Positions 2,845-57,352 of a DNA stretch of 64,000 nt are shown piece by piece. The stretch is from Pseudogymnoascus verrucosus. Taxonomy: Eukaryota. The DNA lies in NCBI GenBank assembly GCA_001662655.1, contig KV460226.1, one strand, 5' to 3'. Below the pieces are notes generated by a model that worked only from the letters and a program-made list of their open reading frames with translations, had not been told where the DNA came from and did not search any database. The position numbers and the translations under genes were made by a program. The first letter of the stretch is position 1; each line of letters starts with the position of its first letter.

Positions 2845-4225
2845 CTTGTCAGGAGCAAGAGGTTCGTATGTTCTGATTTAATTGTTCGTCAAGGACTTGA
2901 ACAGTGGGACTGTTCTGGTATTGTTGCCAGACTTCCAAGCGAGTCTCAGGTTCGTTGGGCGTCAACGTTAAACGATAACTTCGGATCGCCGGGTGAGGAA
3001 GTACTCTGTACTTTACTCTTTCTATAGATCGAGCTCGGCTTTAGGAATAGAATTACAGTCGTAAGTAAATCAGTAATGGAAAGACGATCGAACATATATT
3101 GTATCAGGGACCTGAAGTGGAGGAGAACTAACCCCGCAAAATGATGTCAAGGGTCCCCTCCATTTACTCGGATCGGACCGCTGTTTTGTTTCTAATGGGC
3201 TACTTGTCGACCCTAGATCTGCGCCGGTCCGCTCGTACAGCTCCATAGATGCCGATCTTTCTGCAAGAACCCCGCGATAAGTTGGAGTTTGTTGCCTACG
3301 GAGACGACAAGCCAGCCGGCTGTTCGCGAGGCTCATTTTTCTCCTTCTTTTCTTGCTGTACTAGTTATGTATCCGATATACGAAAGCTATAGTGACTCTC
3401 TGGCCGAACCTGAGCTGAAAAGGTTAGACTTGTGACGCTTCTTCGGCAGCCTGGAAAAGCGAATCGTCTCGTAGCATTTACATACTACCAGCTGTGAGCG
3501 ACAGAGTAGATTCTTCTACTATCACCAGTTCCCCAACAGGCAATAATGCCACTCTTAAAGCCAATCCCGAACACGGAGCTTTCTGCCCATAAGAAGGTAG
3601 TTCTGCCCAATTGAATTATTTTCTCAAGAAATCCACAAGAATATTCAATAATATAAACACCCAACTAAAAATTCATTTGCGAAGAAATGGAACCCAACAC
3701 CCGATACTCACATGTATCTCTGAGCTGCCTCGTATTCCGGCCGAGGTATTTTTGAGGAAAAGTGCTAATCTTTGACAGGCCGTCTCATTTTGTTTGCATA
3801 AACTATTGCTAAAATCGAAGCATCGGCTTATTCAATCGCCTGGACCGAAAGTCACCCCTCTCGTCTTTCATTTTGCTACATAAGGCTCCATACAGGGCAT
3901 TTTACCCAACTGCCGAATTTGCGCCTCCTAAATAAATTATTGCCACGTTATTCCAATATGTATATCGCGTTGCAAAGCTAAAACTCGGTGCCGCCGTCTG
4001 GAGGGCCTCGTCGTGAGCCCTGCCAAGCAATAGAGCGCTCGGGCCAGGAACAAGGCAGCGATCAGCGATAACAAGCCTCGACCCCGCCCCCTCCCTGCCC
4101 CCTCCATCGTCAACCCCAATATCATTAATTCTCACATTATCCCACCAAAACGGAATCCAACTCTGACTGCTTCAATAACAACCTCACTCCTATACCCCCA
4201 GCGTTCACTAAACTTGCCAACCGTT

Positions 4226-5461
4226 ATGGCGTCTCAACCCTCAGCAGAAACCCCTAAGCCCATAGACCCCCAATTAGGCGCCGCCGTGGTAGCCCCTCCT
4301 CCAGCTATCCCTAACCCCTCGGCCCTGATCCTGCGCCTGCTCACCCCGGCTGAAAAGGAGGCCAGTTGGATCACTAACTCTGTCTCCTGGGCCGGCCGCC
4401 TCACCCAAGCCGACTACGTTGCCCGCGAAGCTGCAAATGGGGCTAGTAGCCTCCTACGCGACGGCGGGGTTAGGTATTGGGGCCTCACTACTGAAGGGGA
4501 GGGAGGGGAGATCTACGCGGCGGTCGAGACGCTGAAGAAGAGAGTCTTGGTGCAGACGAGCAAGGGGTTTAATACTGAAGATTCCTACGGCATCGCATCG
4601 GTCTTCACGCCAGCCAAGTACCGTGGCCACGGGCTGGCAGGGACGATGATGCGGAAGTTGGGCGAGTGGCTTGATACCGAGGAGGCGAACTGCCAATTCA
4701 GCGTTCTTTTCTCGGACGTTGGGGTACGTTCTTCTTCCTTTCTGTCCTAGTCCAGATCGGCACAGATACCCTAACACGAGAAACAGAACTTCTACGCCCG
4801 TCACGGCTGGGCTGTCGTCCCCTCCCCCGAAATCACTATCCCCGCTTCTCCCCTCCCAACCTCCGCCTCTCCCTCCCCAGCTACAACACCCATCACAGCA
4901 GAATCCCTCCAACCCTACACGCAGTCTGACTTGCTCACCCTGACCTCAGAGGTCATGTCACCTCCCTCCCCCGGCAACCATACGCGCCTCGCCTTCGACC
5001 CCTCCGTCGCACAAGCAGAGTGGCACTTCGGCGCCGAGGACATCTCCGCCTCGAAGCTATACCCCGACCAGGCTCCGCCGACTCTCAAGGGTGTGGCAGC
5101 TGGTTCCACTTTCGGGTATTGGGTCCGTGATTTCAATGAGCGGAAGCTGATTATGCTGCGGCTTAAGGCGGGTGGGCCGTTGGAGGGCGGAGAGGCGCAG
5201 GGTGTGCAGGAGGTGGTGAGTGTGTTGCGTGCAGCGCAGGCCGAGGCGCATGCATGGGGACTAGGGAAGGTGGTCGTGTGGAATCCGGATGAGAGGGTGA
5301 AAGAGGCTTGTAAGGTTATTATGGGGAAAGAGGTTGAGGTTAAGAATAGGACGGAGGGGAGTGTGCCGTGTTTGAGATGGAACGGGAAGGAGGGGGGTGG
5401 GAAGGGGGAGGTGGAAGCTGGGGTTGAGTGGCTTGCATTGGAGAAGTATTGCTGGTGTTGA
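4226..5461 (+). CDS. GNAT family acetyltransferase, LYC1-like (lysine acetyltransferase type)
   Basis: Exons 4226-4723 and 4787-5461 (GTACGT..CTAAC..CAG). Has acetyl-CoA motif IASVFTPAKYRGHGLA, the spliced join SDVG|NFYARHGW, and C-terminal EKYCWC. Confidence 0.88.
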
Positions 5462-5928
5462 GAGGTTGAGGTGAGGAATAGCGTAGACATGTCAGCTATG
5501 ATGGCGATGATGATTATGATATGAATATAGTAGAACCTTTACATAAGAATGCTCTATACTAGAATTCTTGGTTTATAAGAATCGATTGTCGGGTCCCAAA
5601 TCTTTCAGGTGTGACACTGCAACTAAATAAGTATTAGGTTATACCTAATGATTTCTGTGAGACAGGGATATCATGCGGATACAATTTAATTCTATACGAC
5701 TACATCATTGTTCCCACCTGTGACAACCTCAGATATGGAGTACCAAGTAAGTTATTCATAAGCCGATGATACTATAACATAATATTATACTGTAAATTGC
5801 ATATATGACCCAGCCGCCACCACCCCCAAAGGACGCCCAAGTCCATCCAAATGCTCGCTCGCTGTGTAAACCAAATCGCTAAATCAAACAAAACCAAATA
5901 CACCATCTTAAAACACGCAAAAACTCCC

Positions 5929-8347
5929 TCACCCCGCCAACTCCCCAAAAACCCCCTCATCCCCCGTCTCCCTCGCCCTCTCCACCGCCGTCCGACCCGC
6001 AAAATCCTCAATCTCCGGATCCGCACCCTGGTCCACAAAGAACTTCATCATCGGCACGCTCCCCGCGCCACTCACCCAATGCAGCGGCGTACACCCCTGC
6101 ACATTCCTCGCATTGATATCTGCCCCTCCTCCAAGCAGCAGGGTCATCGCCTCCTCATGTCGCTGACTGGTAATCTTCAGGCGAGACTCGACGTCTTGGC
6201 CCTGCTCCTGCCCATCGTATAGCTGGTTCCCGATCTCGGCGTGGCCGCCCCATCCTGCCCAGTGGAGCGCCGTCGAGCCCGTGTCGTCTGTTGCGCAGGC
6301 ATCGGCACCTTTTGCTAGGAGCGTGCGCACGAGCTCGACGTGTCCGCCCTCCGCGGCGCCGAGGAGGGCTTCGTTGAGGAATAACTCCGTTGTGGCATCG
6401 GCGTCCTGGGACGGTTCCGCGGCGTTCGCCTCCTGGTCTTCGAGGAGCATACCGAGCACGGTGTCGGTATTGCCCAGCTTCGCGGCGTGTCGGAGCTTAT
6501 AAGTCTTCACCAGCATCTCGGTGTCGGCGTCAGCGTTCTCGCCGAGGAGGAGGCGTGTGATGCCATCGTGGCCCTGGCTCATTGCGTAGATGGCCACGCT
6601 CCACCCGTCGTAGTCGCACACTGAGCTGTCTGCTCCCTTCTTCATAAGCATTTTGAACAGCCCCTCGTTCCCCGTCCATGCCGCAGCATGTAGAGCCGTT
6701 GTCCCTGCCGAGTCCTTTGCTTCAATGTCCGCCCCACACGATAGAAGGTACAACACGGCGGAGTTGTGGCCGTAGTACGCCGCGAAGTGGATTGGTGGCG
6801 CGCCGGTAAAGTCCCATCCAGTGCGGTCGTGGCGGAACATGCTGTGTGGAGGCACCTTCCAATGAGTGCCCTCGTTCGCGCCGTCATTGAGCAGCTCGTC
6901 CAGCATTTCGACGTTCCCTGTCGCCGCCGCGCGGTGAACGGGCGACAGGGCGCCTAGGAACTCGCCAAATTCGGGATCGCTGCTCTGCCAGCGCTGCTCC
7001 ACAGATGGTTGACGCAGGATGTCGCGCTGGTAGTGCACGCGCCGGTACTGGTGGGCGAATTCGCCCTGGGGAATGGTAGAGCTTCGGCGGAGGGGGCGCC
7101 TGGGGTCTTTGTCTTTTTTGGGGAGAGAAGGCGCAGATTGTGTTTGTGTCGGGGGTTTGGGGCGAGGCTTGAGTGATTTCCAGAAGAGACGCGTGCGTTC
7201 TTGGTCTTCTATTCTGAAGGTGAGGTGGCATTTTAGGCTGGTGATGTGTTAGCAGTTGATTCTGTATGTGTTACAAGGGAACATACCATCTACGTCGCCC
7301 TGGTTGATCGTCAAGCCATGTCTCCATTGTTCGACATCGTGGGCATTGTTTCTCATCACCTAGTCCAGGATGCCGGAGGATGAAACTTAGGGCGATGCGT
7401 TTCCCCGGCAGAAAGCTCTCGGCCCATTTCGCGTGGGGGATCAGGGCGCCGCCAAAATCTTCGTCGGAAACGACGTACTTGCCGCTCTCGATCTTGTCGT
7501 ACCCAGGCCCACCACGATGCATGATAAGGAGAACTTCTCGGAAGGTCTGCTAGTTGTTAGCGATAATAACAGCATCTTGTTCGTCTCAACTTACATCTGG
7601 GGTGCTGGCCAGCATTAACGGAAGAAGCACCTTCCTATCCAGCCCATCTATAAGTATAATCGGTGCCTCTGGCCCCCAGCTGTATCCTATTGACGTCGTC
7701 ACTGTATTCTGGACGACTTCGATTCTCTTGACAGCTTCAGCAACCATAAGATGCATGTCGCCAAACCGCATCGCTAGCGATTCAACCGAGGTATCGATGG
7801 AACCTAGCACAATACTATTGTCGACAACATCGCTCTTCATCGATGCGCTACACCAATCAGCATCTTGTCTGGCTTGCCAAGAAATCGAAATAACCTACAA
7901 GCAGAATGCATAGAGACGTAGCTGCAGCGCCTGCATATGCGTAGTGATCTTCTTCTCCAGCGCAGCCGCTTCCTCCTTACGCCCCAGCCAAGTTAGCTTG
8001 CGATAGGTTTTCCGCACGACGCCGCTCGTCTGCTCGACAAATGCGTCTGAGTAGGCTGAAAAGTCAATAAGGAACTGCGTGATGAGATTCTCGCACTCCT
8101 TGCGCTCCTTGATGATCTCGGCACCGATGGATTCGAGCATTTTGATGCTAGAGGGGTCGTTGCTTGGGCGCGCGGACTGACAGCCCATGCATAGCGCTTC
8201 GGCTTGGAGCATGGCCTGGGCGAGCGCGTTGAGAGTCTTGAGAAGGGAAGTGAACTCGGCCTTGGAGCCTTGCGCGTCGTTGAGGGCTTTCGCGGCGCGG
8301 GCGGCCACCATGGCGATGGTGATGAAGTCGCCGACTTGGAGCATCAT
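5929..8347 (-). CDS. HeLo-like N-terminal domain + fungal ubiquitin-like domain + Zn ribbon + ankyrin repeats, ~756 aa
   Basis: Exons 8347-7899, 7847-7595, 7546-7287 and 7237-5929 total 2271 nt in frame. N-terminus VGDFITIAMVAARAAKALNDAQGSKAEF; then PIILIDGLDRKVLLP..PGYDKIESGKY; CPRC..CLKC; several TALHxAA/TPLH ankyrin motifs. Confidence 0.85.
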
Positions 8348-9132
8348 CTTGGCTGCTATGGGGGGGAGGGAGGGGTAGTAATAATGCTATGGGGAGGATA
8401 TGGCGATGCTAGAGGAGGTCGTAGAGATCTTCCTCCCACTCTAGGCAGGGTTCAGACTTATGGAAGTGATGGCATTCGCGCATGGCTATGGGGGAATAGG
8501 GAGGAAAAGGAGTGAGGCTGAGGAGAGGGAAGGGGAGCGAGAGCGGAGAGAGGCAACAAGTGAGGAAAGAAAGACAGAGATAACAATAGCGAGAGGCGCG
8601 GGCGGTAGTTAATGGGCCATGGGGGTCTCGATTAACTGCCTGGAGGGCTGGAGGGCCGTGGGGAACGCCATGTGGGAAACCCGGGCAGTCCCGTGTGTCT
8701 CAGCCGGGAGTCCCAGGCCTCTGATTGGCTGAAATAATGGAAATAAGGGAACCGAAGGCTGAAGCTTTCCAATATATTGGCTTTTGGTGTCAGACCTTGG
8801 CCGGGTCGGGACTAACTGGATTGGGATATATGATATCCAAGGCACGTGGAGAGACACGTGCTGTGATGCATGGATGCCTTTCTTGATGGCCTGGGATTGA
8901 AGGTGCATTGCCTCCTTCTTGTTCTGTCCTTGATATTTTAAGATTAAGATTCTTAAGAAACTTAAGATTCTTAGTCACGAACTCTAAAGTATCCCGTCTG
9001 CCGCTGCCGTGCCTCCGGGAACACTAACACACAGCTCCAAACACTAAATTCTCGCTACCAAATGAATGTTCTTCTATTGATTCCTTGATTCCTTGATTCC
9101 ACGATGCTATCGACTATCTACCAGTTCGCACT

Positions 9133-10637: not shown

Positions 10638-11921
10638 TCACAGCTTACCACCCAGCTCCACATTCGCCGCATCATACTCAAACCCCCACTCCCTCTTATT
10701 CCACCACACCATGAGGAACGCCCACATGAACAACTCCATAGTCTTCTGAAAGAGCCATGAGCGGTTCTTCGCCCCCTCCCACCTTGCCGACGCACGTGTG
10801 TAGTTCTCTGTCACCCTCTCCCGGCGCAGCTCATCATACCGCCTGAAAACCGCTTCCACGGCTGCCCCCTCTTCCTCCGCCTTCCCAACAAGACGCCCCA
10901 GTACGACTGCATCCTCCATCGCGAGAGCAGCGCCTTCTCCGCCAGGGGGACCCTGTATCAGTCAGTCCAGTTCACCGCCGTGCCAATCAGGGCAAAATCT
11001 TACCGCATGTGCTGCATCTCCAACCAAAACCGTCCTCCCCCTCCAATACGTCCCTCCATTAGGCAAGACCCACACTGGGAAAAATGACCATTCCTCCACT
11101 CCCTCAACTACTGCCTTAAACACCGGGTCTCCCCCGCCAAACCTCTCTACTAGCTCTTTCTTTGCCTCTGTCCCCATGGCGCCCTTCCCGCGCCACCCGT
11201 CCCTGTCGGCATCGGGGGCTTTAACCTCCATCACCGCGCCTACAAATACCTTCTCTTTCCTCGGTCCGCAGTAACTTACAATAACACTCCCTCTCATCCC
11301 CGAGGCCACCGCTGTTCCCTCGAAGCCTTCCTTCCCTATCAACCCCTCAGGAGTAGCCGAAAACCCATACGCCGAACTCAGGCCAGAGTACGTCGCCTTC
11401 CTGTCCGGCTCGACATACGCCCCTCGCACAAGGGAGTGTATCCCATCGCACCCAAACAACAACTCACTCTCCACCTCTCCCCCATCTGCAAAAACCGCCG
11501 CGACCCTACCGTCCTCAACCTCACGCACGCCCTCAAGGCGCTTCCCGAACACGACTTGCACGCCCGCCTCATCTAGCGCGCGGATCAGGAGCTCAAGCAG
11601 CAGCGCGCGCTCGATACGTAGGCTGGTGTGCCCAGTCTCCTCGTCGATAAAGGGGAGGGCGCCCAGTTTAGCCCCGCTTCGGAGGGAAAAGATACTTATC
11701 TCCTTTGTCTCGAAGGCGATTTCCTTTGCGGCGGCTAGGAGGCCGAGAGAGTCTAGAATGCGCGAGACGGGTGGAGTAAGGTTGATCGCGCCGCCTAGGG
11801 TAGAGGGAGACGCGCGCAGCTCGTAGATTGTAGGGATGGTGGAGGAGTAGCGATTGAGGGAGAGGGCGAGGAGGGCGCCGGAGAGGCCTAGGCCGATTAC
11901 GGTTGCGCGTTGGGGAGGCAT
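10638..11921 (-). CDS. FAD-dependent monooxygenase (salicylate hydroxylase/UbiH-like, group A)
   Basis: Exons 11921-11004 and 10952-10638. Motifs VIGLGLSG, FGCDGIHSLVR and the spliced LVGDAAHA|GPPGGEGAALAMEDA. Confidence 0.92.
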
Positions 11922-12718
11922 GGGTGGGTTATTAGAGTATTTCGCGGTGAGTTTAATGCGTGAGCTGTGAGTTATTGTAGTTTTGGTTCTCTAGGCTCTT
12001 GAACTGAAATGCCTCTTTTATACATGGCTGCGAAGATTTGAGACCTCGCATTCCCTCGGATTCCCAGCCGTGGCTACGTACTCTCACACGCAGTCTCACC
12101 TGTACCCGTTCCCGCGTCGGGAACAGTCAGCCAACCCTGGGCATATCATTCAGCCACGGCCCGCGCCATTGGAGCCAAATAAGCAAACTTAGCAGGAGGT
12201 TTGCAGTGGTACCGTCACAGCCACGCGGCTGCTGATACGTCGTCGCCGATGGATTGGCCCGTCTGACACTCGGCGTAGTTTGACAGATGTAGCTACTGGA
12301 TCAAGCATTTTCGGCTAATAACAAGCGCTTTAAAGGGTCGATCACGATGACGCCTTCATGGCACATTACTGTCGAGGATTTGCGGGCCAAACTGGTGGGT
12401 GCAGAGGATAATAAGCTTGTTGTTGGATGAGACCAGTTACTACAGGGGTGCAGAATGCGATATTTCTCTACACGACAAAACCAAATTGAAAGGAAGAACT
12501 TCGAGATAGCGAGCTATAAAGTAAATATTATATCGGAAAATTGGTATACCATAGCAATCAAAATACTTCAATTTCAGTATCAATTCGTATCTCCGTATAG
12601 TCCTTTAGACTTCCAGGCATGAGCGAGTACCGCTAAACATAGCACACATATCCCACAACGCCAACCAAAAATCTATACTCCCCCCATCATAGCGCCTCTA
12701 ACACCCCCTTCCAGCCCC

Positions 12719-13739
12719 TCACTGCTTCAACTTCAACCCCAACCACCCCGTCGACAGCTCCCCCATATTCCCCATCGGTCCCCTCCAACTAATATTCAAC
12801 ACGCCCATGAACACCTTCCCGCCCTCCCCAATCTCATCCGGCTCCCCCACCTTCTCCACCACAAAGCAAACCTGCTGAACCCCTCCCCGACCCACCACCG
12901 CTTTCCCCTTCTCCCCCTTCTCGCCATCCCACAGGGACTCTAGACTCCTCGCGCGGAACCAGCTTTTCGTATCTAACCTCACGCCCTCTAGCACTAGCGC
13001 TTCCTCGCCTACATTCTCTAGCTGTGCCTCGAGTGCCCAGCCGCCATCCACAGTCCCGATTTTTGTGCGCACCACCAGCGCCGGGCGCGCGACGAACTGG
13101 TATAACTTCCTGAAGCTGCGGACACGGCCGGACGTCGATGTCGTCTCGGAGTATGACACCGTGACGGCGAGGACGTGTGGTCCCTCCTCGCGGAGGTGGC
13201 AGGTGATTATCCCCTGTAAACTTGCGGCAGGAGCGAGATCGGTAGGCGGCGGTGCAGACTGAGAGAGCGGATCTGAGTCCGGCGATGACGGTGTGGACGC
13301 CGAGGTGAATGAGACAGGGAGGGAAGTTGTAAGGCTGGGTGTTTTCATTTCCGCTTCTATCTTGACGGAGTGCACGCGCGGCGCATCGGATGGGAGTTCA
13401 TTATTCGCGCATAGGGTGCAGGAGAATGTCTCGCCCACGTATGCGTTTCCGAAGGCGGGGGGGAGGGTGAGGAGCGGCGAGAGGGCGAAGGGGGAGGAGG
13501 GCGCGGAGGGGTAGGTGAGGGATGCGGCGCGGGGGATGGTTTGGGCGAGGGTTGAGGATGGGGAGGGGTGGGGGAGGGGGTATTGGATTGCGAGGGAGGG
13601 TCGGGTTAGGCTGGGCGTGGGTTAGATGGGGACTGTTTGGGTGGGGAGGGGGGACGGACCGGAGGACTTTGAGGGAGACGGCGTGGGGTTCTTTGGGCAC
13701 TTCGGTGGTGCTCACGGACTGAGCGCGCTGGTGCGCCAT
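12719..13739 (-). CDS. TRAPPC13: TRAPP complex subunit 13-like (DUF974) protein
   Basis: Exons 13739-13660 and 13610-12719. Motifs HAVSLKVLR|LTRPSL, FGNAYVGETFSCTLCANN, RSFRKLYQF, LEAQLEN and WRGPMGNMGELSTG. Confidence 0.88.
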
Positions 13740-15094: not shown

Positions 15095-17926
15095 CTAACC
15101 ACTGCACATCAGACAGCTCTCCGGGTTCTCAATACTACACGCCAACACAGCATCAGCATAGATATCATTCTCCCTCTCATCGCTATCCGGCTTCTCCTCC
15201 GACTTCGACAAGCTGACATCCTTCAACTCCTCATCTTGCATCGCGCCCGGCTCAGTAGCCAGTGCCTTTGGGCTACCGCCCTCCTCGACATCAGCCTGGA
15301 ACCCGGGGCTCTTCAGCGGGGGGTTGACGGGCTTTCTGGTCTCGGTGGGAGGGGGGGTGATGCTGGGTGTTGGGACGCCGTTGGAGGTGAGGCTGTTGGT
15401 TGGGGGGGTGGAGTTCTGCTTCATGTACATTGGACGAGGTCCAGATGCCTGGGAGGGGGCGATGTATGACTTCGCGAGGGGTTTGCGCGAGGAGGTGCGC
15501 TCTCTCGCGACGTTGGTGTCAGCGACGAGGAGGGCCTCCTGATCGACGGTGAATTGGATAGGGGCCGATGCGGCCATGGTGCGGAGGTAGTACATTCCGG
15601 TCTTGAGGCCGAGCTTCCAGCCGGCAAAGTGCATGGATGTGATCTTGCCCATTGTCGGGTCCTTCATGTGGATGTTGAGGGACTGGGATTGATCGATGAA
15701 GGCACCGCGGTCGGCGGCCATCTGGACGATGGTGCGCTGGGAGATCTCCCAGACGGTCTTGTAGAGGGCCTTGATGTCGGCGGGGATGTTGGGGATGTTC
15801 TGGATGGAGCCGCCGTCTGCAATGATGCGGTTCTTCATGTTGTCGGACCAGAGACCCATGTCGACGAGGTCCTTGAGCAACCAGGGGTTGACGACTTGGA
15901 ACTCGCCGGCCAGGACACGGCGCGAGTAGATGTTCGAGGTGTATGGCTCGAAGCACTCGTTGAAGCCGAGGATCTGGGAGGTGGAGGCAGTGGGCATGGG
16001 TGCGACGAGCAGGGAGTTGCGGACACCGTGCTGCTTGATCTGGGCCTTGAGAGAGTCCCAGTCCCACAGGTCGGTAGGAGTAACGCCCCACATGTCGTAT
16101 TGGAGCTCACCCTTGGACACTGGGGATCCCTCGTAGGTCTCGTATGTGCCGTGAATCTGGGCCAGCTCCACGGAGGCAGTTAAGGCACCGTGGTAGATGG
16201 TCTCAAAGATCTGGGAGTTGAGGAACTTGGCCTCGGGAGAATCGAAGGGAAGGCGGAGAGCCAGGAATGCATCAGCAAGACCCTGGACACCAACGGCAAC
16301 TGGCCTGTGACGGAAATTGCTGCGTCTGGCCTCCGGGACGGGGTAGTAGTTGACGTCAATGATCTTGTTCAAGTTCTTGACAACAACCTGTGTGACCTCG
16401 TGAAGCTTCTGGAAGTCGTATGTGCCGTTGGCCATGTCAACATATGTCGGCAGGGCAAGGGATGCCAAGTTACACACGGCAACCTCATCTGGGGCAGAGT
16501 ACTCGACAATCTCTGTGCACAGGTTGGAGCTGCGGATGGTACCGAGGTTCTTCTGGTTGCTCTTGCGGTTGCAGGCATCCTTGTACAACATGAAAGGGTT
16601 TCCTGTCTCAGTCTGAGACTCGAGAATGGAGTACCAAAGCTTCTGGGCCTTGATAGTCTTGCGACCCTTACCCTCCTTCTCGTAGCCCTCGTAGAGCGCC
16701 TCGAACTCATCGCCGTAAACATCTGCCAATCCAGGGCATTCGTTGGGGCACATGAGGGTCCAGTCGCCGTTCTTCTCGACACGCTTCATGAAGAGATCCG
16801 GAATCCAGAGAGCGTAGAACAAGTCACGGGCACGGACTTCCTCCTTGCCGTGGTTCTTTCTCAAGTCCAGGAACTCAAAGACATCCGCGTGCCATGGCTC
16901 AACGTAGATGGCGAAAGCACCAGGGCGCTTGTTGCCACCTTGGTCAACGTACCTTGCGGTGTTGTTGAACACGCGGAGCATAGGGACAATGCCGTTCGAG
17001 TTTCCGTTGGTACCGGCAATGTATGCACCAGTGGCACGGATACGGTGGATATTCAATCCGATACCTCCAGCAGTCTTTGAGATCATGGCACAAGTCTTGA
17101 GTGTGTCATAGATACCCTCAATGCTATCCTCCTTCATGTCGACCAAGAAGCAGGACGACAGCTGGGCCTGTGGTGTACCAGCATTGAAGAGTGTTGGGGA
17201 AGCGTGTGTGAAGTATTTGGAAGACATGAGGTTGTATGTCTCGATTGTCTTCTCAATATCCTCACCGTGAATGCCCACCGCAACACGCATAATCATGTGC
17301 TGTGGCCTCTCAGCAACCTTGCCATCAAGGCGGAGAAGGTAGGATCGCTCCAGGGTCTTGAAGCCGAAGTATTGGTAGTTGAAATCACGGTCGTAGAGGA
17401 CGGCAGAGTTGAGCTCCTCCGCGTGCTCCATAACGATGTCATATGTCTTCTTTGCAATCATGGGCGATGGCTTCGAGTTCTTGGGGTTGACGTAGTGGTA
17501 CAGGTCGTGGATGACGGACGAGAATTGCTTCTTCGTCTGCTTGTGAAGGTTGGACACTGCAATACGTGCAGCGAGGATGGCGTAGTCTGGGTGGGTGACG
17601 GTCATGTAGGCCGCAGTCTCGGCAGCCTGTGACGTCTGTTAGCAATTGAACAAGTCTACAGGAAGTGGACTCTCATAAAAGAGGCTATACATACCAAGTT
17701 ATCGAGCTCAATGGTGGTCACACCCTGGTACACACCAGAGATGACCTTTTGTGTGATGGCAGCGGCGTCGACATGCTCAGCATCTAATCCGTAACACAGC
17801 CTCGAGACACGAGCTGTGATCTTGTCGAACTGGACACGCTCCTTGTTCCCATCTGCAAGTCTCGTTAGAGGGTGTAGCTGCAGGGTGTGGAGTCTGCATG
17901 AACTTACTGCGCTTATACACGAACAT
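15095..17926 (-). CDS. RNR1: Ribonucleoside-diphosphate reductase large subunit, ~902 aa
   Basis: Exons 17926-17908, 17852-17695 and 17626-15095. ATP cone [19 protein letters not shown], motifs SNLCTEI and [11 protein letters not shown]-terminal CLMCSG. Confidence 0.98.
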
Positions 17927-25443: not shown

Positions 25444-25957
25444 TGTGAGGGTGGGTGGGAGTTATGAGAGGTGCGGTGGCATATTGTGGTTTAGTTCAGG
25501 TAGATTGGGCCACGTCGCGTGTGATGCTGGGGTGATGAGGTGGATTGAGTTTCTGTATTCTCATGCGTTTGTGTGTAAGAGCTTGGATATAAGCTTGATA
25601 CGCGCAATTGCTCGTATTTGGGCGTCAAATATCCAAATTCCTCTGGCTTGTTTTGTCGACTTGCGATAGCTGTGCTGATAGCACCTCGAAGTTTACAATG
25701 GTACAGGTACAGCTCTACGTCAGCGGAACCACTCCGCGTGCGCCCCTGCCGCATTAGCGGAGAGACCACCCTGCCAGACACCGCTCGCTCCCCCAAGTTA
25801 AGCCTCACGTCAAGCCTCGCCACAATCCACATCCATCGCACCTGTCTCGGTCTGGCAGACTTGGCTCGTACTGCAGATCCTCTATATATATAATACCACA
25901 CATCACACATCGGTCGTACCATATTATTTTCCCCCGCCCGCCTCCCATGCTGGCCAG

Positions 25958-28202
25958 ATGAACTCAATTGCCACCGACTTTCTGACGAACCTTTTGGCGA
26001 GCGAGTCGTATCGGATTTGGGGGAAGGAGAGCGGGGTGGTGACGGATGAACATGTGGATATCTTTGCGGATGATCGGATGTCTGTGATGGGAGAAACGGA
26101 ACAGGAAGAGGAGAGGGCTGGGAGTGGTGGGGAGGGACAGGGGGAGCAAGGGGCGGATGGGGTAGCACAGGGCCAGGGAGGAAGTCAGGAAGGCATACTC
26201 GAAGATGAGGGCGGGAGAGAGGCTTCAACTGGACGTCAATCTGAGTCCAGGTCACCTGTTCGAGAAGAAAGCTTAGAGAACGCTGTACAACCGCAAAGCG
26301 GTCTCGAGAGCGACCCAATTCCGACCGGGTCGGAAACGGAACTGCCCATTCGGCAGGAAACCGAGACACCAGCGACTGGGGAGGACGCGTCCAGCAACCC
26401 CGAGTCTACAATACCAGACGGGGCCCAGAGCTCCCCAGCGCCGCCTATAAACCCGTCAGACCCCCAGGCCGAAAGTTCAACGCAAAGGAGCTCTGCTGCT
26501 CCGATTGGGGAGGCCAGTGAGCAGCCGCATATAAACCAGTCAGACACCCAGGCCGAGAGTTCTGCTCAAGCAGAGTCTGCCGCTTCGATTGGGGAGGCCA
26601 GTGAGAAGCCGCCTACCGCGTTGCCCGAAGATGATGGCATGCGCGCACTGCGGGAGAGGGTTCTTCACATACAAGTAAAGGATATTTCTACGGATGAGAA
26701 GGCGCGGCTGATGCATGAGCTCCTGACGGAAGGATATACCAAGTCTCAAGTTGGCCAGGAGATCCCTCCTTCACCAGCAGCGGTAGTGAGCCAGGAGCGG
26801 CCAACGACTCCTACATCGATAAGCTCCTTTAACTTCTGGCCTGGGAAGGACAATTCTCATTCTCCTGAAAAGGGAGATACTGTTACATTCCATTTAACAA
26901 AGGATGACCTTCAACCCACATATGCGCCTCTACCCCCACCAGTCGAAGGAGCTTCTGATGGCAGTGACGATGTAGAGCAGACACAGGTATTTGGCTGTCA
27001 GCATTACAAGCGGAATGTCAAGCTTCAATGCTTCACATGCAACAAATGGTATACATGTAGGCTGTGCCATGACGCAGCTGAGACTCATACATTACCACGG
27101 AGGGAGACCAAAAACATGCTTTGCATGATCTGTGGCAACGCCCAGCGAGCAGCTGAAATATGCACTCACTGCACAGGCCGCGCCGCGAACTACTACTGTG
27201 ACATTTGCCATCTTTGGGAAGATGATCCGAACAGGAGTATTTATCACTGTAATGACTGCGGGATCTGTAGAGTTGGTATGGGCCTCGGGAAGGACTTCTT
27301 CCATTGCAAGGTTAGCATCCATTTTCCCTATCGCATTCAGAGTCTAACATCCCCCGCAGACGTGCGGTCTCTGCATGAACATCTCGATGGAAATGTCCCA
27401 TAAATGCATTGAGCGGTCCAGCGATTGCGACTGCCCCATCTGCCACGAGTATATGTTCACATCTCCGCAAACCGTGGTGTTCATGAAATGCGGTCATACC
27501 ATCCACAAGCACTGCTACCATGCACATCTGGAGAATTCGTATAAGTGTCCGATCTGCCAGCAGACGATCGTAAATATGGAGACTCATTTCCGCGCCATTG
27601 ATAGGGCTATCGAAGCGCAGCCCATGCCGGAGCAATTCGAGGACACGAAAGCTATGATCACTTGTAATGATTGCAGGGCGAAGAGTGCGGTGCCGTATCA
27701 CTGGCTGGGGCTCAAGTGCGCAGTTTGCGATAGCTATAACACAATACAGGTGAATATCATCAACGACGAGCCATTGGCACCGCCTGCCGAGGCGGCGGGA
27801 CAAGGGGATACTGCGGGGGAGGGTGCGACAGCAGAGATGGCTATACCAGTTCCAAGATCGAGGAGGCACTCATTGAGTGCTGAACAAACCCTTGCTCCGA
27901 GAGATTATAGTTCTGGGCTAGCTCCAGACGTACCGTCGAGGATTGGCAGGTCGATGTCGCCTGTGCGGGGGAGCTACTTTAGGCAGGGAGAACCCGCACG
28001 CCCTGCGGCAGATGATGCTGAGGTTTGGGATGATGAAGATACAGATTTTTGGGGACGGACACCCGCGGACCTCGCGGTGGATGGAGAGGAGGAAGAAGAA
28101 GAAGAGGAGGAGGAGGATGAGGATGATTTGGACCTGTCTTTGGAAGACGATGATGATGATGATGATGATATTGATACGATGGAGTTATTTGGGCATCGCT
28201 AG
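25958..28202 (+). CDS. CHY zinc finger / CTCHY / RING E3 ligase (RCHY1/Pirh2-like)
   Basis: Exons 25958-27310 and 27360-28202. Motifs GCQHYKRNVKLQC, CDCPICHEYMF and HWLGLKCAVCDSYNT; acidic tail. Confidence 0.93.
26441..26608 (+). repeat. In-frame 84-bp (28-aa) internal duplication in the CHY/RING gene
   Basis: PPINPSDPQAESSTQRSSAAPIGEASEQ followed by PHINQSDTQAESSAQAESAASIGEASEK. Confidence 0.9.
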
Positions 28203-30031: not shown

Positions 30032-33000
30032 CTATACACCCAGTAAGCTCAGCTTCTTAAATTCTCCAATAACTGGCGCCACCTTTGCCCGCTGACTGGC
30101 CTCCATACTCTCCGCCAATACTGCATCGCCTCCAATGGGCCTATACCCATTCTCATCTACCTCGCCCTCTTCAACCTCTTTGGTCTCGTCCGCCTGGCCG
30201 TATACCTCTTTCACGGCATCCTTGCACATCTGCACGACTTCCGCGCCTAGTGCCTCGACAGCCAACGCACCTTCGCGCATACCCCTGCGTACAAGACCCT
30301 CAACAAGTCGTTGAATTTCCTCTCTGGTGGACTCAGCTCGCTCAATCAGGCGGCCAACGGAAGCAACGAGGTATTCTTCCTCGTAGACGGACCCCTTCTT
30401 GCCACGGGCGCGCTTGCGCTCTTCTCTGCGCCTGTTCTTAGACGTCACCCTCGACGCACCGGTAGCTGCGGTACCGAGAGACTGTCGGCCGGTGTATCTC
30501 GTGAAAAGAGAAGCTGATGTTGACACACCCGAGGCTGCGACGGAAATATCATCAGGGATGTCGGCATCACCCTTCGACGCCTCTCCTTCATAGAATGCGA
30601 GTGGGTCCGCAATTGCTCGCTCACGTAGCTCTCTGATACGAGGCACCTGCGCATTCAGTTGGCCCTTGCATTCAGCGAGTAATTCTGTCGTGACTCCAAG
30701 AGAGTCCGTGAGGCCTGTATCTATCACGCCGTTTGGTTCCAGAAGCTCTGGGCACGGCCGGATAGGAGACGTGGCGAGTTCGAAGGCTGCGGCGAAGTAG
30801 CTTCCCTTGCAGAAAAGTTTGGCTGCCACGGTTGGCGAACCCAGGTACGTAGCGTGGATAGTGGCGGCGTCGAAGTAGCTCTTAATTTCAGCCAAGGAGT
30901 CGGCGAGGGACTCCGCGAGGGATGACAACGCAGACGGTGTGGGAGATGTCAGAGAAAGACAGAATAGGGCCTCGCGCCAGTATGTTGGCGATGCGAGGTG
31001 GTAACAGTGGCTTGCTTCCGCATAGAGACGTAGAGATTCGTATGCTAGGGCTGCAGCATGATATTGAGACTTTGCCTCCAAGTGCACAGCATAGAGGTGT
31101 GTTATTTCGGAAAGCCTTGCTGGGACGTAGCGATACAATGTTAGTGCCGACTTGTATAGGGCGTGCTTCACTATGTATGCGTCTATCTCGGCGGTTTCGT
31201 CGGTTGGAGACGAGTCCCGAAGAGACGTGAGAGCCTTTGCATGTCGGCTGAGGTGATCATCAATCGAGAACTGTCTCCTTAGAACAGGCATTTCCTGTAG
31301 CTTTTGGAGGAATGGCAAGTATTCTCGAGGATCTTTCTGAGACTGCTGTGCAACTAATAATGCAAGGTCCAGGTTGTAAAGACCAAGGGCGTGCTCATAT
31401 AGCTTGTTGACGTCGGCAAGGAAGCAAATATGCTCAACTGCTTTATCGGCCATGGATTGATCGGTAGACATCAGCAAAGCAACAACCTTCAGACCGTCGT
31501 CTAGAGCAGGCGGCGATTTGCATAGGTGCGCTGTGATAATGTTCTTAAGGTTGGTAGATTGGCGGTGCGAGAGTATAGAAAGCATGGCGTCACAGACGCG
31601 GTTTACTTTCGAGGTAGTAGTCGATGTAGGCGGTGCCACAGGTAAGCCATTGGTGTTAGCTGAAGGCTTCAATACGCGTGTATCTTTATACAATGTCTGA
31701 GTGACGTCTTCTTCCCTCAGCGATGATAAGAAAAGGTCGATATAGGTAATCTTCTTCACTTGATCAACGAAAAGCCCGACATTCGCCAGGAACTGTTCCG
31801 GCTGGTAATCGTACAGCAGGTTCATATCGACTCTTTGTGTCCTGCAATGGGAGAACGCTCTCTTGTAGTTCTTCTCGGCGATTAGCTTCCGGATTCCAGC
31901 AAGAACCATAGCCCGAGGCCAGATAGTCTCCAAGTTTCCACGAGGCATTTGCAAAACCAAGCTGAGAGATGTTGGCATAGCTGTCACAAGTCGAGATCCA
32001 CGCTCGAGGGCTCGGCATCTCTCGTCCTTCTCCGGGTCGTCATTTGGAACTTCCAGGTCTTGCACATCCGTAATATGCACAAACTTAAGCATGTGAGTTG
32101 TGGTAGTGAAAATAAGGTGTAGCGGGGTCGTAAGGAAAGATGTACAGTTCTTCGCGAGGCACCTCGAGTTGGCATAGAGATGGCCATTAGGGGACAGCCC
32201 AAAGGCAATAACATCCTCTCCGTGCTGAATAATCTCGACCCAGGGCAGAAATGCAGGGAGCTTGCAGTGGTTAAGGGAGGCATTAGCAGCATCGGTACTA
32301 TGAACATCTCCAGACGAGCCTTGGATAAACGCGTGATCCTTGCCATCCTGCTCGAAGCTCGAAAGGCTAATGGCTGATTCGTGACTTTGGGGCTTAGTTT
32401 CAATCATACGCCCAGACTCGCTGTCGAAGCCGTGGAAGCTAATACTCGATGTGCCGTCTTCAAGATTACGTCTCAAGACCAAAACATTTCCATCCTCATC
32501 AAAGCTAGCATGGAGATAACTGCTTTCGGAATCCTTCTCAAAAGTGAATCGGCCACTGAGAGTAGGAACGGATGATGTGGTTCCTGATACTACCCAATCA
32601 TAAACCTCGATGCCACTTTGGTGCAACACAGCAATGCGAGAAGTCTCGGCATTGAAGGCAACATCAATCGTGTTTTCTTTAATAAGTAGTTCGTAGTGAG
32701 CCATTGGAGGAGGAACATTGGCAGATCTGAGCGGCGTGAGCTTGATATTCTTGCCATCGATGACGGCAACAGCGCCATAATCATGTGGCGGCATCGTAGA
32801 GCTTTTAGCAACAGTGAAAATATACTCTATGATGTTGATACCATCAGCGCTGGCAACAATCATTCGTAGAACCTTCTCCTGGTGCCAGACCAAAGAGTTT
32901 GCAAACGTCGTCTTGGTGGCGATCTCATGCTTTAAGTACCAGTGGTAGTTGCCCATCGTCCAAAATTGAACTCTATCCTCAAATATAACTGCAAGAACAG

Positions 33001-34022
33001 AAGAATCGTTGTTCCATGCCAAGGAGATGTTCTTCCCGAATGTTCCCATCTCTTCGGGAGTCAGTCTCAAGCTGAATTGCCCGTGACGGAGACCATTTCG
33101 CTCAAAGAAAACAATGTCGATACGGTCACTAAACCTTTGAACGCCGGCCATCAGATTCCCTGCAGGTCTCCAACTCAAGGCTCCTTCGAGGTTATCAACA
33201 GGCTCACTGACACTGTCAAGCACACCCTCTCTCGAGTAGACACGAATAAGACGCCGTAAGCCTTCTTGGACTGTGGAGATAGCAATATATGCACCATCTC
33301 CCCTCCAACTAATCGTAGCGTCTTTCTTGTCGTTTGGGCTCAAGAGGCCTTCATCGACCTTCTCTGGCATTGTCGGGTCTCGGAGAGCATTCGCCCCTCG
33401 CCCCTTAAATTGGGTCTCCTTCTTTCCCCAGCCGACATTGACATGGTTGCTAGCCTTTTGGTCCTCTGCAGTCATTGTAACATCCATGATACCTTCAAAG
33501 CTGCGGCTCATGAAGACGACGGTGTCAGCTTTCGTTGTGATCGCCAGCAGTTCCTCATCAGGTGACCACCTCGCTGCGGTGATACCTGCATCGACTGATC
33601 CTACAATCTCAATACGGTCTTCTCCTGGCAATGGTTCCTCTCTGACGACCACAATGTCGCCGCCAGCTAAGACGAGACATGCTGTCTGGGAGTCGCCAAA
33701 GTAATATAAGGATAGGATCTCATCACAGGCAAGGTCAGGGTTTGGGCATGGCGCGTCCCAGGAAGTAATGACAGTATGCTCACTAGAAACGCCGTCAGTA
33801 AGTCAATTCCAATATGCCCAGTGTGTACAGTGTGGGTTCTCACTTTTTGTTGCCCTTCTTGTTTACTCTGACCAGCTCGACAAGGGTATCATGTTCGCTT
33901 GGCCCATATGCCACAATCGCGCTGTCCGAACTTGTATCCCACGCCGTCGCCGTAATGCTTCTCACTGAAAATTCATCGGGACTCCTCCAAGTCTCATACT
34001 TGATATTCCTTAGATTGCGCAT
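30032..34022 (-). CDS. ELP1: Elongator complex subunit 1
   Basis: Exons 34022-33844 and 33782-30032. Motifs MRNLR, VGWGKKETQFKG, SWRGDG, LQMPRGNLETI and KRARGKKGSVYEEEYLV (IKI3 family). Confidence 0.97.
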
Positions 34023-41028: not shown

Positions 41029-44000
41029 TCAATTCACCCCCCTCGGCCCCAAAAGACTCGGCACAGCCTTCCTCCCCATCCTCTTCCCCCCATTAACCAC
41101 CACCCTCGGCACCCCCCCAATAACCCTCGGCTCCCTCATGAGCTCCGGATCCAACCTTGCCGGCATACGACAAATGACGCTCTTGTACTCGCCCTTGAAC
41201 GCGCCGCTGGGGCTGGGCACGCTGGCGCTTCGCCAGAGGTGGTCGGAGCGGTCTTCTAGGAAGGAGGTCTTGGCTTTAGAGAAGAAGGAGGAGGTAGAGA
41301 AGCCGCGGTTGCGTTTGGCGAGGATGATTTCGTCGAAGAGGCGGATGGAGGGGCTGGAGGCGGGGGTGGTTTCGCGCTCGTGGATGAATTCGTTGAATGC
41401 TGTTGTGTGTTAGTGCGCGGGTTCATAGAAGGGGGGGTTGAAGTTAGACATACCCTGCGTTTGCCTTAAAGCTCCAACATAGTCGGACATCTCCCCGGGC
41501 AGACTTCTCTCGAAACCCTCCATGTCAAATGCATATAACTGCTTCGCGGCCTTCTGCTCTTTGGTAGTCGCGGGTCTCAAATGCTTGCGGTATGTATACA
41601 GAAAGCTGGCGAAGCATCTCACAAAAGCGGCTCTGACCTTGTCCGCGTTAAACGCCGATGGGCAGATTAAGCTCACCTGGCCAAGACAACGGGCGTGGGC
41701 GGTGATGCTGCAGCCGCTGCAGCCGTATGTTCCATCACTGTCGGCTTTCTCGTCACATATAGAGCAGACGGAGGAAGTATCATGGCTCTCCCAATTGAGA
41801 CAATGTCCCTCAACCCAAACTGTTTCCGAGGACGAGCTGACAGGCTGCATGAGCATGCTCGGCATAACCGTGCTCGCTGCCAGTGTGCTAACTGCGTAGC
41901 TGCTGGGGGCGTAGCCGTACATGCTCTTGCTGTCTATGGAGATGGCAGACGCCGACAAGGATGCCGAGTGCCCCGCTGTGAACCGCGGCTCTGGTTTGCG
42001 ATACGGGATATTGTCGCCCACACCAAAGGACGAAGATCGTCTGGAACTGGGCTCAAAATGACCAGAGCGTTTCTCTTTCAGAGTGCTCGTCAAGGTGAAA
42101 CCGGACTCGTTGCGAATCATTGGGCTGTTTGGCATGTTCGGGAAATGGGTCGAGTTGGGAGAGATTGCTGTTTGTGGCGGACTAGAAGGGGTGTTTGACT
42201 TGCTAGTCGACGGACGCTCAACACGAGTGTGGTCATTCTTAGACTGGAGGAAGGCGTTGAAAACGAGCGGCCGAGACGTCGTTTTAACGTTTTCTTCAAC
42301 GAATGTGGTTGAGCTCTGGCTAACAAACTTGGAGAGCGTGCTTGGCGCAGAGTTCTGCGTAAATAGGGATGGAATTTCACCTGAGAACGCATCGTATGGG
42401 AAAGTTTCGATGGCATACGGCGGAGGCCCAACAGGAACGCCGAACTTGTTATGGTGCGGTGCCGCTAACTGAAGCAAGGAGAAAAGCTTTCGCCTCTGCT
42501 GCCGCGGTAGAGACACTGGTGGCGTAGTAGACTCGATGGTGTCGTTATCCAAATCCACGAGAACATAGTCGTCATCTGGCAAATCAACATTCTCGTATCG
42601 TCGCTCAATACCCACAATATACGGGCAAGGGGCCTCCAATGCGGAAATAAGGCGCGCAGGTAGCACAGGAATGAAGATGCTTGCCCATTTGAATGGGTAC
42701 AGCAGCGTTATCAATGCCTTGGTCGCTAAATGCAGCATAGCCGTGTGTGACGACAAAAATATAATCCGAGATTCTGATAGGGCGAATTCCAACAAGGCCA
42801 CGATATTCGGGATTGTCAAGGCCCTGAAAAGAGCATACAGGTCCGCGTTTCTCGACTCGGGCAGCTCGTTCACAGCCTCCTTTCGGGCAAATAATCGAAG
42901 CTCTCGGACAGCAATTTCGACCTGCGTCTTGGAAGTGATAGGTGACAGTGCTTCGGTGCACAGGTTCACAACATATCGTTCTAGCGGCTGCCACCGGCCC
43001 ACTTTAGGTGAACTTGGTGGAACCCGTAACACGCCGCTGTCCGTCATAGGCACAATAACAGCCCGAAGCCACTCCTTCCAGAAGCTCGTTAGCCCAGCAT
43101 CGCGCCCCAGAATCCCATAAGCCCTTGGGGTCCAGAGACCTGTATCACCGTCCGTCAGACCCTCTATTTTTGATGCTGCACCATGTCTCACAGGTCTCAA
43201 CATGTCCGTCATCAACGAAATCTTCTCTTCGACCGAGCTAATTCGCTCCTCGAGATCGTCACGGGCAGATGACCCAGAGGTCATCGCCGGGAGCTGAGTA
43301 AGGAGTTGCGATAAGTGAGCTCTTTCCCCGGCCAATCTCTCACCCAGGCTTGCTGCCAACTCCCGCTCTTCATTCGTCATATGGCTCTGACGCCAATCTT
43401 CGCATTTTCTCTCCAGTGCCGCAGCCGCATCGGTGCCAAGGGGTAGCCACACTATCACAGTAATTCCGTATATTTTAGCATTATCATCTCCAGTCATTGC
43501 AAATCCGTGCCACGTGGACCGAGGCCTCTCGTCTGAGGAGACAATGTTGATATCGTTAGGGAAAGCGAACATAGGGACATAATCGGGGAACCGTCCCCTT
43601 CTCTGCAGTTCGTCCGTTGCAGTCTTCGGTGGGTATCTGTCAAGGAGCACGGGTTCCAGGCGTCGTTTTAAAGGGTGCATATCAGGGTCCGCGTTTAGGG
43701 GTTCAGGTGGTGGTATAACGGAATTATAGTTGCTCAATCGTTTGGAGGTGCGGCTCGAGACTATATTGTGTTAGTTGGGGTTCTATTATACACATCAATA
43801 GAGTGCGAATAGACTCGTATCTTCTCGCCCAGTGTGCCAATCTGAAAACCAAAAGGCACAAATAGCGACACCGCCAATATAAAAAATGTCTTGCGCGCAA
43901 TTGCGAGCAGCAAATCCCAAGAATATAACTTACCACTCCGGTTTATAGTCTGCTTCTTGGAACTGTTCAGGTCCCTAAAGCTGATCTTCCTCCGTATGCT

Positions 44001-56831: not shown

Positions 56832-57352
56832 TTGGGAGTATTCTAGCTTTTTTTCACCTCACCCACCGTTGCGCGCCATACCCAGTCCGAATGATCCTAG
56901 ACAGTAGCTAGTGAACGTTTGCTAGTAATTTATTGTTCAAGCTGAACGTCATGTTCTTACTTTGTGATTGTGAATGTTCTGATATTAAATTTGTTTCAAA
57001 AATAAAAGTATGAGAAATATAAAAATAAATCAGATTATTAATGTCCCACTTCAATACTTGCCCCCGAACAACACCTGGATACGAAGTGAGTTTTACACAG
57101 TCGTCCTCCTCACCCGTCATATAATTATATATTATATATAGATCAAATCACCACTTGACTAAGATTCAATTGGTTGCCATCCAAACAGGCACAATATTCG
57201 GGCCAAGCACGTGACCGCATAGGAAATTTTAGGTGGACTGGGGCGATAAGCAGCTTATCAACTTAGCGGCCGCCCGAAAATACCTTTCAATTGGTCCCTG
57301 CAAATAAATCCAAAATCTTCCATTTCCTGTCGCAACAGCACTGTAAGAGACC

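Follow-up and report, generated by a model that had tools for sequence, protein, structure and literature searches.

A conserved, NOD-less SesA/HeLo-like protein with a ubiquitin-like domain, a predicted zinc ribbon and ankyrin repeats in Pseudogymnoascus verrucosus

The locus and its gene

The window analysed here is a stretch of 64,000 nucleotides from contig KV460226.1 of the fungus Pseudogymnoascus verrucosus (Leotiomycetes, Thelebolales; assembly GCA_001662655.1); all positions are counted from its first letter. The locus 5929-8347 on the minus strand is one transcribed four-exon gene of P. verrucosus, annotated as VE01_04118, which encodes a multidomain protein of 756 residues that lacks a nucleotide-binding oligomerisation domain (NOD). 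The protein begins with a helical domain homologous to the SesA/HeLo-like group, which is followed by a long connecting helix, the ubiquitin-like domain (ULD) ULD_2, a predicted zinc ribbon, a basic linker, and ankyrin repeats (Table 1). This architecture is real, widespread and unstudied, and the P. verrucosus copy is conserved and ordinary-looking; any cell-death function of it is putative.

Table 1. Features of the VE01_04118 gene and of neighbouring genes in the 64,000-nucleotide window (nt, nucleotides; ORF, open reading frame; FAD, flavin adenine dinucleotide)
Feature	Positions	Strand	Remarks
Exon 1	7899..8347	-	ATG 8347-8345; residues 1-149 and two bases of codon 150; SesA/HeLo-like helical-bundle N-domain with GDFI...GS..EF motif
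Intron 1	7848..7898	-	51 nt, GTAGGT...TAG; precisely skipped by contigs of runs X1 and X2
Exon 2	7595..7847	-	Residues 150-234; long connecting helix (about 152-198) and start of ULD_2
Intron 2	7547..7594	-	48 nt, GTAAGT...CAG, CTAAC branch motif; precisely skipped by one X1 contig
Exon 3	7287..7546	-	Residues 235-320 and two bases of codon 321; remainder of ULD_2, first ribbon CxxC
Intron 3	7238..7286	-	49 nt, GTATGT...CAG, CTAAC branch motif; splits codon 321, the third ribbon cysteine
Exon 4	5929..7237	-
ULD_2 (PF22893)	7373..7669	-	Residues 210-292
Predicted C4 zinc ribbon	7228..7345	-	Residues 302-324, CPRC-x15-CLKC, across intron 3
Basic linker	6925..7227	-	Residues 325-425; motifs RRSST and YRRVHYQR
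Ankyrin-repeat region	5929..6924	-	Residues 426-756 and stop codon 5931-5929; divergent repeats, acidic insertions
LYC1-like GNAT	4034-5458	+	Convergent with the 3' end of VE01_04118
FAD-binding monooxygenase	10965-11990	-	Neighbour scan
TRAPPC13	12722-13621	-	Neighbour scan
Ribonucleotide reductase large subunit	15098-17638	-	Neighbour scan
CHY zinc finger, then RING finger and zinc_ribbon_6	25802-28199	+	Pirh2/RCHY1-type E3 ligase architecture over two ORF fragments
ELP1	30035-33802	-	Neighbour scan
DENN/C1-domain protein	41413-43770	-	Neighbour scan
Mpp10	57347-59605	+	Neighbour scan

A first-pass annotation, made from the letters of the window, had joined four stop-to-stop ORF fragments (7895-8386, 7586-7894, 7271-7549, and 5929-7248) into one protein of about 756 residues, and this gene model is borne out. 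The three introns are all of the GT..AG type and carry CTGAT or CTAAC branch motifs; their removal leaves a coding sequence of 2271 nt. Its product is 100% identical to P0106, which is VE01_04118 of P. verrucosus (RefSeq XP_018130466.1, named 'Ubiquitin-like domain-containing protein' in UniRef); therefore, the proposed gene model is the annotated one. A gapless comparison with P0001 (V500_11108 of Pseudogymnoascus sp. VKM F-4518) gave 718/756 identical residues and 38 differences. The gene has been annotated already, and public domain databases show its combination of domains. Chance is excluded as the origin of this model by the E-values of the domain matches given below, by the exact identity to an annotation made independently and by the existence of spliced contigs.

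The transcript evidence consists of assembled contigs from two runs (X1 and X2) of one study, whose library type is presumed to be RNA. Besides the contigs which skip introns 1 (one in each run) and 2 (Table 1), a single contig bridges exons 1, 2, and 3, and another one stops precisely at 7287, where exon 3 is predicted to end. Among the contigs of four runs (presumed RNA), none bridged intron 3; positions 7984-8500 and 5800-5981 were uncovered. Of the three introns predicted in the first-pass annotation, two are thus confirmed by spliced contigs, but the third is not spanned by any. The intron 3 junction follows from the reading frame, from the orthologous models of 755-757 residues, and from the second CxxC, which is conserved in other genera. 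For intron 2, an alternative TAG acceptor at 7550 would insert one glutamine; the orthologous gene models share the acceptor of the 48-nt intron.

It is very improbable that the gene model is an artefact, i.e. that the N-terminal domain with the ULD and the ankyrin repeats belong to separate genes, or that the product is a short isoform ending in a retained intron 3. Such an error would lie at the junction that no contig bridges, where retention would stop translation after 5 codons (TAA 7273-7271), and many members of the protein family have only 340-470 residues and no ankyrin repeats. However, exons 1 to 3 share one spliced contig, and a further contig stops right at the predicted donor; moreover, splicing completes a ribbon whose second CxxC is kept across genera, the orthologous models have the full length, and the ankyrin exon, as read from the sequence, offers no evident ATG for a stand-alone start before the linker. 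As a side observation, retention of intron 3 would give a form of 325 residues comprising the N-terminal domain, the ULD and half of the ribbon, without ankyrin repeats, whose size is near that of the family members with 340-470 residues. The short database entries P0039 and P0051, which end right after the first CxxC, may be gene calls truncated at the position of intron 3.

Domains of the protein

The N-terminal domain (residues 1-150; N-domain) is a homolog of the SesA/PigL_N (HeLo-like) group, which is solidly supported, albeit only transitively and below the level of Pfam-threshold membership. A phmmer search with this domain against 1.84 billion cluster representatives gave 93 matches at E ≤ 1e-3, 24 of them at E ≤ 1e-10; many of the matching sequences are about 150 residues long and are probably gene calls of the first exon. 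An alignment of 70 family members shows the signature SVGDFIA...AL..S.GS..EY, with residues G6, D7, L22, G27, L39, F92, and W120 each conserved to at least 90%. The N-terminal motif, which had been read as VGDFI..AxKALxxAxGSxxEF beforehand, is the most conserved part of this alignment. Among the 70 members, PigL_N was matched by nine, SesA by six, and HeLo by one at E ≤ 0.01. Some relatives exceed the Pfam cut-offs, which are 26.3 bits for SesA (PF17107) and 27.2 bits for PigL_N (PF17111, formerly Helo_like_N): P0040 scored 35.5 bits for SesA and 30.3 bits for PigL_N, P0057 31.0 bits for SesA, and P0094 27.5 bits for PigL_N, whereas P0075 just meets the PigL_N cut-off (27.2 bits). The phmmer E-values of P0040 and P0057 to the query are 2.6e-7 and 3.2e-5, respectively. 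When the 16 closest sequences were aligned by means of hhalign with ten Pfam-positive or near-positive members, a probability of 99.8% and an E-value of 1.2e-27 resulted over 140 columns; note that the hit list of a single query was the source of both groups.

According to the literature, the annotations SesA and HeLo-like show a strong overlap and have been merged (PMC4986451). Helo_like_N aligns with the executioner domain of MLKL, and a published HHpred comparison links it with MLKL's four-helix bundle (4HB; PMC9815663); HeLo and HELL domains target or act on membranes via their extreme N-terminal helix (PMC12881547). Because of the Pfam-positive relatives, the hhalign result and this literature on the group, the label 'HeLo-like (HELL/SesA-type)', which the first-pass annotation had chosen for the N-terminus, is justified as a statement of homology via intermediates; neither a direct Pfam match nor a specific fold match accompanies it.

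The structural model of the N-domain is an all-helical bundle with a pLDDT (predicted local distance difference test) of 83.8 and helices at residues 5-23, 29-59, 65-95, 97-104, 110-122, and 124-148. Searching with this model by means of Foldseek and VIA-align gave generic helical bundles; no HeLo, MLKL or plant coiled-coil (CC) domain was among the matches listed, which is uninformative in the case of a bundle. By fold searches, the domain is indistinguishable from interaction bundles of the vinculin, talin or FAT type. The extreme N-terminal helix has the lowest confidence of the N-domain model (pLDDT 66-72), and residues 1-19 constitute the most hydrophobic 19-residue window of the whole protein. 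As this segment is at the same time the most conserved, the most hydrophobic and the least confidently packed one, the first helix fits the pattern of a releasable HeLo/HELL helix. With respect to cysteines, C85 in helix 3 (8093-8095) occurs in every one of the 16 closest sequences and is the majority residue among the 70 family members; the CMGC pair (residues 53-56) is not kept.

Five phmmer matches (P0019, P0043, P0047, P0067, and P0091) are probably spurious and were set aside: they consist of multiple stretches, in which residues 14-59 or 86-148 of the query match immunoglobulin (Ig)-like or tetratricopeptide repeat (TPR) regions. The TPR proteins P0067 and P0091 contain a sub-threshold nSTAND_NTPase5, the sole STAND-type trace in the hit list; residues 97-148 of the query match several stretches of their TPR part and not their N-terminus, and both proteins were treated as helical-repeat noise.

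For the middle part of the protein, residues 150-348 of P0001 (95% identical) were modeled with 17 aligned relatives. The model begins with the long connecting helix, which comprises protein residues 152-198 (model residues 3-49). A ubiquitin-like segment had been noticed from the sequence; it corresponds to ULD_2 (PF22893), which P0106 matches with 40.7 bits (E = 2.8e-10) at a cut-off of 24.5 bits. P0001 scored 44.4 bits, and exon 3 alone 23.9 bits. The domain was modeled as a β-grasp fold with pLDDT values of 92-95, for which Foldseek and VIA gave ubiquitin, SUMO, Hub1, ISG15, and UBX as fold matches. Its structural neighbours are UBX, UBL and dimerisation domains, including the ubiquitin-like dimerisation domain of protein kinase D. 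A role as a processed ubiquitin-like modifier was ruled out: the ULD is internal, and the 'PGLG' that follows it is not kept as a di-glycine in the orthologs.

The ribbon cysteines are arranged as C302-x2-C305-x15-C321-x2-C324 (codon of C302 at 7345-7343). In agreement with the prior reading of a CPRC..CLKC ribbon completed only across intron 3, codon 321 is split by this intron, and the second CxxC is kept in the full-length relatives; C302 is invariant in 17/17 aligned sequences, and the consensus is CPRC...CxxC. The predicted structure is a three-stranded mini-sheet, made of short strands and bearing the four cysteines, with pLDDT values of 86-90. No Pfam ribbon family reached its threshold, the best one being Zn_ribbon_IS1595 with a weak E-value of 0.15, and the rows of the fold search barely cover the ribbon.

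The linker motifs RRSST and YRRVHYQR are conserved in P0095, P0002, P0013, and P0096, and distant family members contain a weaker form of the latter, F-[RK]-[RN]-[IL]-[HSD]. RRSST resembles a site of basophilic kinases. The C-terminal ankyrin repeats, which the first reading had recognised correctly, matched Ank (PF00023) with 127.1 bits and E = 6.3e-38 in five stretches and Ank_2 (PF12796) with 134.3 bits and E = 2.3e-39 in four stretches. These repeats are mutually divergent, with a best repeat-to-repeat identity of 17/33, and the gene is without tandem DNA repeats. As had been stated for the P-loop, the protein contains neither a [AG]x4GK[ST] nor a GK[ST] motif, i.e. no Walker A motif; in addition, P0106 gave no Pfam match to NACHT or NB-ARC at E ≤ 1. 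The fungal NOD-like receptors (NLRs) are defined by their NOD; since the tests for it were negative, the protein does not count as an NLR.

Family, conservation and comparison with known systems

The 26 longer phmmer matches were scanned with Pfam. ULD_2 was found in 13 of them and ankyrin repeats (ANK) in six, five of which also contain ULD_2, while P0026 has ANK only. The rest comprises six proteins of 236-275 residues without a family match, P0085 with nothing but sub-threshold PigL_N and Rx_N, and the five probably spurious TPR or Ig-like proteins; NACHT or NB-ARC occurred in 0/26. The ESM-Atlas clusters nearest to residues 1-340 are named 'Ubiquitin-like domain-containing protein' and have 211, 119, and 91 members with representatives of 370-443 residues. 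ULD_2 is annotated in 91-94% of their members and PigL_N in 12-16% of the members of two clusters, and the commonest phylum is Ascomycota; this cluster comparison is a lead and not a test. For the ULD-ribbon part alone, the nearest named Atlas clusters contain ULD_2 only, and one of them is mainly from Basidiomycota. The pattern in the scanned relatives and in the Atlas clusters identifies N-domain, helix, ULD_2 and ribbon as a conserved unit. Ankyrin repeats have been added to it in some subfamilies; in the present one, the linker and the divergent ankyrins follow this core.

Thus, the protein belongs to a large and widespread Ascomycota family, which is catalogued in databases and functionally unstudied, and the architecture is not unique to the P. 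verrucosus gene. The homolog P0095 of Geoglossum umbratile consists of 762 residues and is 59-61% identical; P0013 of Eremomyces bilateralis (473 residues) is without the ankyrin part, and other close full-length relatives occur in unnamed assemblies. Word-indexed homolog searches gave five proteins for the core (residues 1-340) and four for the ULD-ribbon part (residues 196-336), numbers which are too small to judge the taxonomic spread. Within the literature library that was searched, there was no paper on PF22893, on a fungal combination of HeLo-like and ubiquitin-like domains, or on the accessions.

Within the genus, the identity to 11 Pseudogymnoascus orthologs is 92.7-100%; ten of these are complete, with 755-757 residues, and P0103 is a partial record of 641 residues. 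Among the 12 sequences, 22.7% of the N-domain columns are variable, as against 18.6% for the helix region, 10.8% for ULD_2, 13.2% for the ribbon, 13.7% for the linker, and 14.5% for the ankyrin part. A tblastn search found no second copy of the gene within the window, and no NLR, HET, or secondary-metabolite core gene was among the neighbours scanned. The conserved orthologs, an ankyrin part that varies no more than the N-domain, the divergent repeats and the ordinary neighbours fit purifying selection and not a polymorphic sensor engaged in allorecognition or an arms race. Hence the gene comes close to an invariant single-copy ortholog, with which the first-pass interpretation would have been at odds: ortholog conservation and housekeeping neighbours were found, but the gene is not thereby a housekeeping gene.

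The closest known system is the fungal family of 'Ubiquitin-like domain-containing proteins' with ULD_2 and often PigL_N, which shares the core of N-domain, ULD_2 and CxxC ribbon (13/26 longer relatives); most of its members have 340-470 residues and no ankyrins, whereas the VE01_04118 subfamily adds the basic linker and the repeats. The 'all-in-one' fungal NLRs of the type SesA/HeLo-like-NACHT/NB-ARC-ANK have in common with VE01_04118 the homologous N-domain group and the C-terminal ankyrins; in contrast, VE01_04118 has helix, ULD_2 and ribbon in the position of the NOD, and its ankyrins are divergent and not hypervariable. HET-S and HELLP, in which a HeLo or HELL domain is combined with a C-terminal prion-forming motif and is activated by a linked NLR, resemble it in their helical N-domain of a related superfamily with a conserved first helix (PMC12881547). 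However, VE01_04118 is without an amyloid motif or an adjacent NLR gene, its C-terminal control region is a different one, and no direct match to HET-s, in sequence or in fold, was obtained. A similar overall layout is that of MLKL, with its four-helix bundle, brace helices and regulatory pseudokinase: in both, a helical bundle at the N-terminus is followed by a long connecting helix and then by a globular regulatory part, a likeness that is based on analogy and transitive homology; the regulatory part of VE01_04118 is made up of ULD, ribbon and ankyrins instead of a pseudokinase, and MLKL was not among the fold-search matches listed.

MrPigL of Monascus ruber, known here by description only, is an ankyrin repeat protein in the azaphilone pigment cluster (PMC8241920), and Pfam named PF17111 (PigL_N) after its N-terminus. 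Taken together, this description and this name indicate another protein with a HeLo-like N-domain and ankyrins for which no NOD is reported. Disruption of mrpigL left pigment production unaffected (PMC8241920). VE01_04118 differs in that its gene lies outside any biosynthetic cluster. An accessory role in secondary metabolism like that of PigL was ruled out for this locus: among the neighbours scanned there is one FAD monooxygenase only, and there are no genes for polyketide synthases (PKS), non-ribosomal peptide synthetases (NRPS) or terpene synthesis.

Possible function and rival explanations

By analogy, we tentatively favour the reading that VE01_04118 is a conserved, regulated effector or adaptor with MLKL-style autoinhibition and not an NLR surrogate for allorecognition. 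In analogy to HET-S, HELLP and MLKL, the N-terminal bundle would be the output module, whose extreme N-terminal helix, once released, would target membranes or a partner. The unit of helix, ULD and ribbon might serve as a hub for control or self-assembly; the ULD-ribbon part is the best candidate for such a role because it almost always accompanies the N-domain of the present subfamily. The input would be received by the ankyrin repeats together with the linker motifs RRSST and YRRVHYQR, and the repeats could be where a protein signal from upstream docks and thereby relieves autoinhibition.

Several findings weigh against this proposal. The N-domain gave no Pfam match, neither to SesA nor to PigL_N, when exon 1, P0001 and P0106 were scanned at limits of E ≤ 0.1 to 1. 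A comparison of the family profile with the sequences of the Protein Data Bank (PDB) returned no chain of HET-s, MLKL or a plant CC domain at E ≤ 10; it hit designed or unrelated helical proteins only, the best one being 5cwb with E = 2.3e-4. The mean Kyte-Doolittle value of residues 1-19 is 1.37, which makes this segment only moderately hydrophobic. The high conservation, the housekeeping neighbourhood and the lack of an amyloid motif and of a linked NLR are atypical of known fungal cell-death loci. Finally, SesA-type domains are not known to kill by themselves.

A non-lethal role as a scaffold or adaptor in the ubiquitin pathway is the main rival reading and almost as probable. The bundle and the helix would then constitute a structural or coiled-coil interaction module, the ULD would dock to a receptor for ubiquitin-like domains such as the proteasome, Cdc48 or a kinase, the ankyrins would recruit a client, and the homology to SesA/HeLo-like domains would be a matter of ancestry only. 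The strong conservation, both within the genus and in Geoglossum, and the housekeeping neighbours agree with such a protein, as do the N-domain fold, which cannot be separated from vinculin-, talin- and FAT-type bundles, and the structural neighbours of the ULD. Similarly, MrPigL is without a detectable role in its cluster, and no lethal phenotype is reported for it (PMC8241920). On the other hand, the homology to SesA/PigL_N is solid, the literature ties this group to MLKL-type executioner domains (PMC9815663, PMC12881547), and the conserved hydrophobic extreme N-terminus matches the HeLo/HELL pattern.

The first-pass annotation had gone further and seen in the protein a sensor-effector for cell death or nonself recognition, in which the ubiquitin-like and zinc module replaces the NOD. 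In its full form, a polymorphic het-like or NLR-like sensor whose fast-evolving ankyrins face variable ligands, this explanation is improbable. It is true that HeLo-like/SesA N-domains and ankyrins are typical of the two ends of fungal NLRs (PMC12881547, PMC9815663) and that the NOD is missing here. However, the ankyrin part, whose allelic diversity was expected to be informative, did not turn out to be hypervariable: it has fewer variable columns than the N-domain, and the length of the protein is fixed at 755-757 residues. Moreover, the repeats are divergent and are not accompanied by tandem DNA repeats, one-to-one orthologs exist in other classes, and there is no paralog within the window. 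For comparison, the repeats of hypervariable NLRs are reportedly highly similar to one another (Dyrka et al. 2014). Conservation, ankyrin variability and neighbourhood therefore disfavour those parts of the earlier proposal which, from the sequence, had pointed to nonself recognition.

The MLKL-like reading can be extended to the whole family, although this generalisation is rather unlikely to hold. The combination of SesA/HeLo-like bundle, stalk helix, ULD_2 and ribbon would represent an undescribed class of fungal MLKL-like executioners that is independent of NLRs and amyloids and has hundreds of members in Ascomycota. In these proteins, the ULD, and not a pseudokinase, a prion motif or a NOD, would gate or oligomerise a membrane-targeting bundle, and accessory modules, here the ankyrins, would provide the input, possibly via RRSST.

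In fungi, the relatives of the necroptosis executioner MLKL are the HeLo, HELL and SesA-type domains, which are so far understood only within NLRs or as amyloid-controlled partners of NLRs. Our data indicate a large family in which such an N-domain is fused to a ubiquitin-like domain and a predicted zinc ribbon and in which both a NOD and a prion motif are absent. Should the N-domain be active, this fusion would be a third mode of controlling it, and the short members of about 350 residues would offer a tractable two-module system for studying the restraint and the release of 4HB-type domains. If it is not lethal, SesA-like bundles would also have roles other than cell death, which affects the counting of fungal 'immune repertoires' on the basis of domain annotations. 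For the VE01_04118 gene itself, which is already annotated and conserved, the practical result is modest.

With respect to the surroundings of the gene, Alg14 is also among the scanned neighbours, in addition to those listed in Table 1. A further observation concerns the 90%-identity cluster of P0001, which has misfit members: P0097 and P0099 (459 residues) carry locus tags adjacent to those of orthologs, P0108 (320 residues) is named FAD-dependent oxidoreductase, and P0101 has 342 residues. These entries may represent genes next to the orthologs, or else models that are fused or partial.

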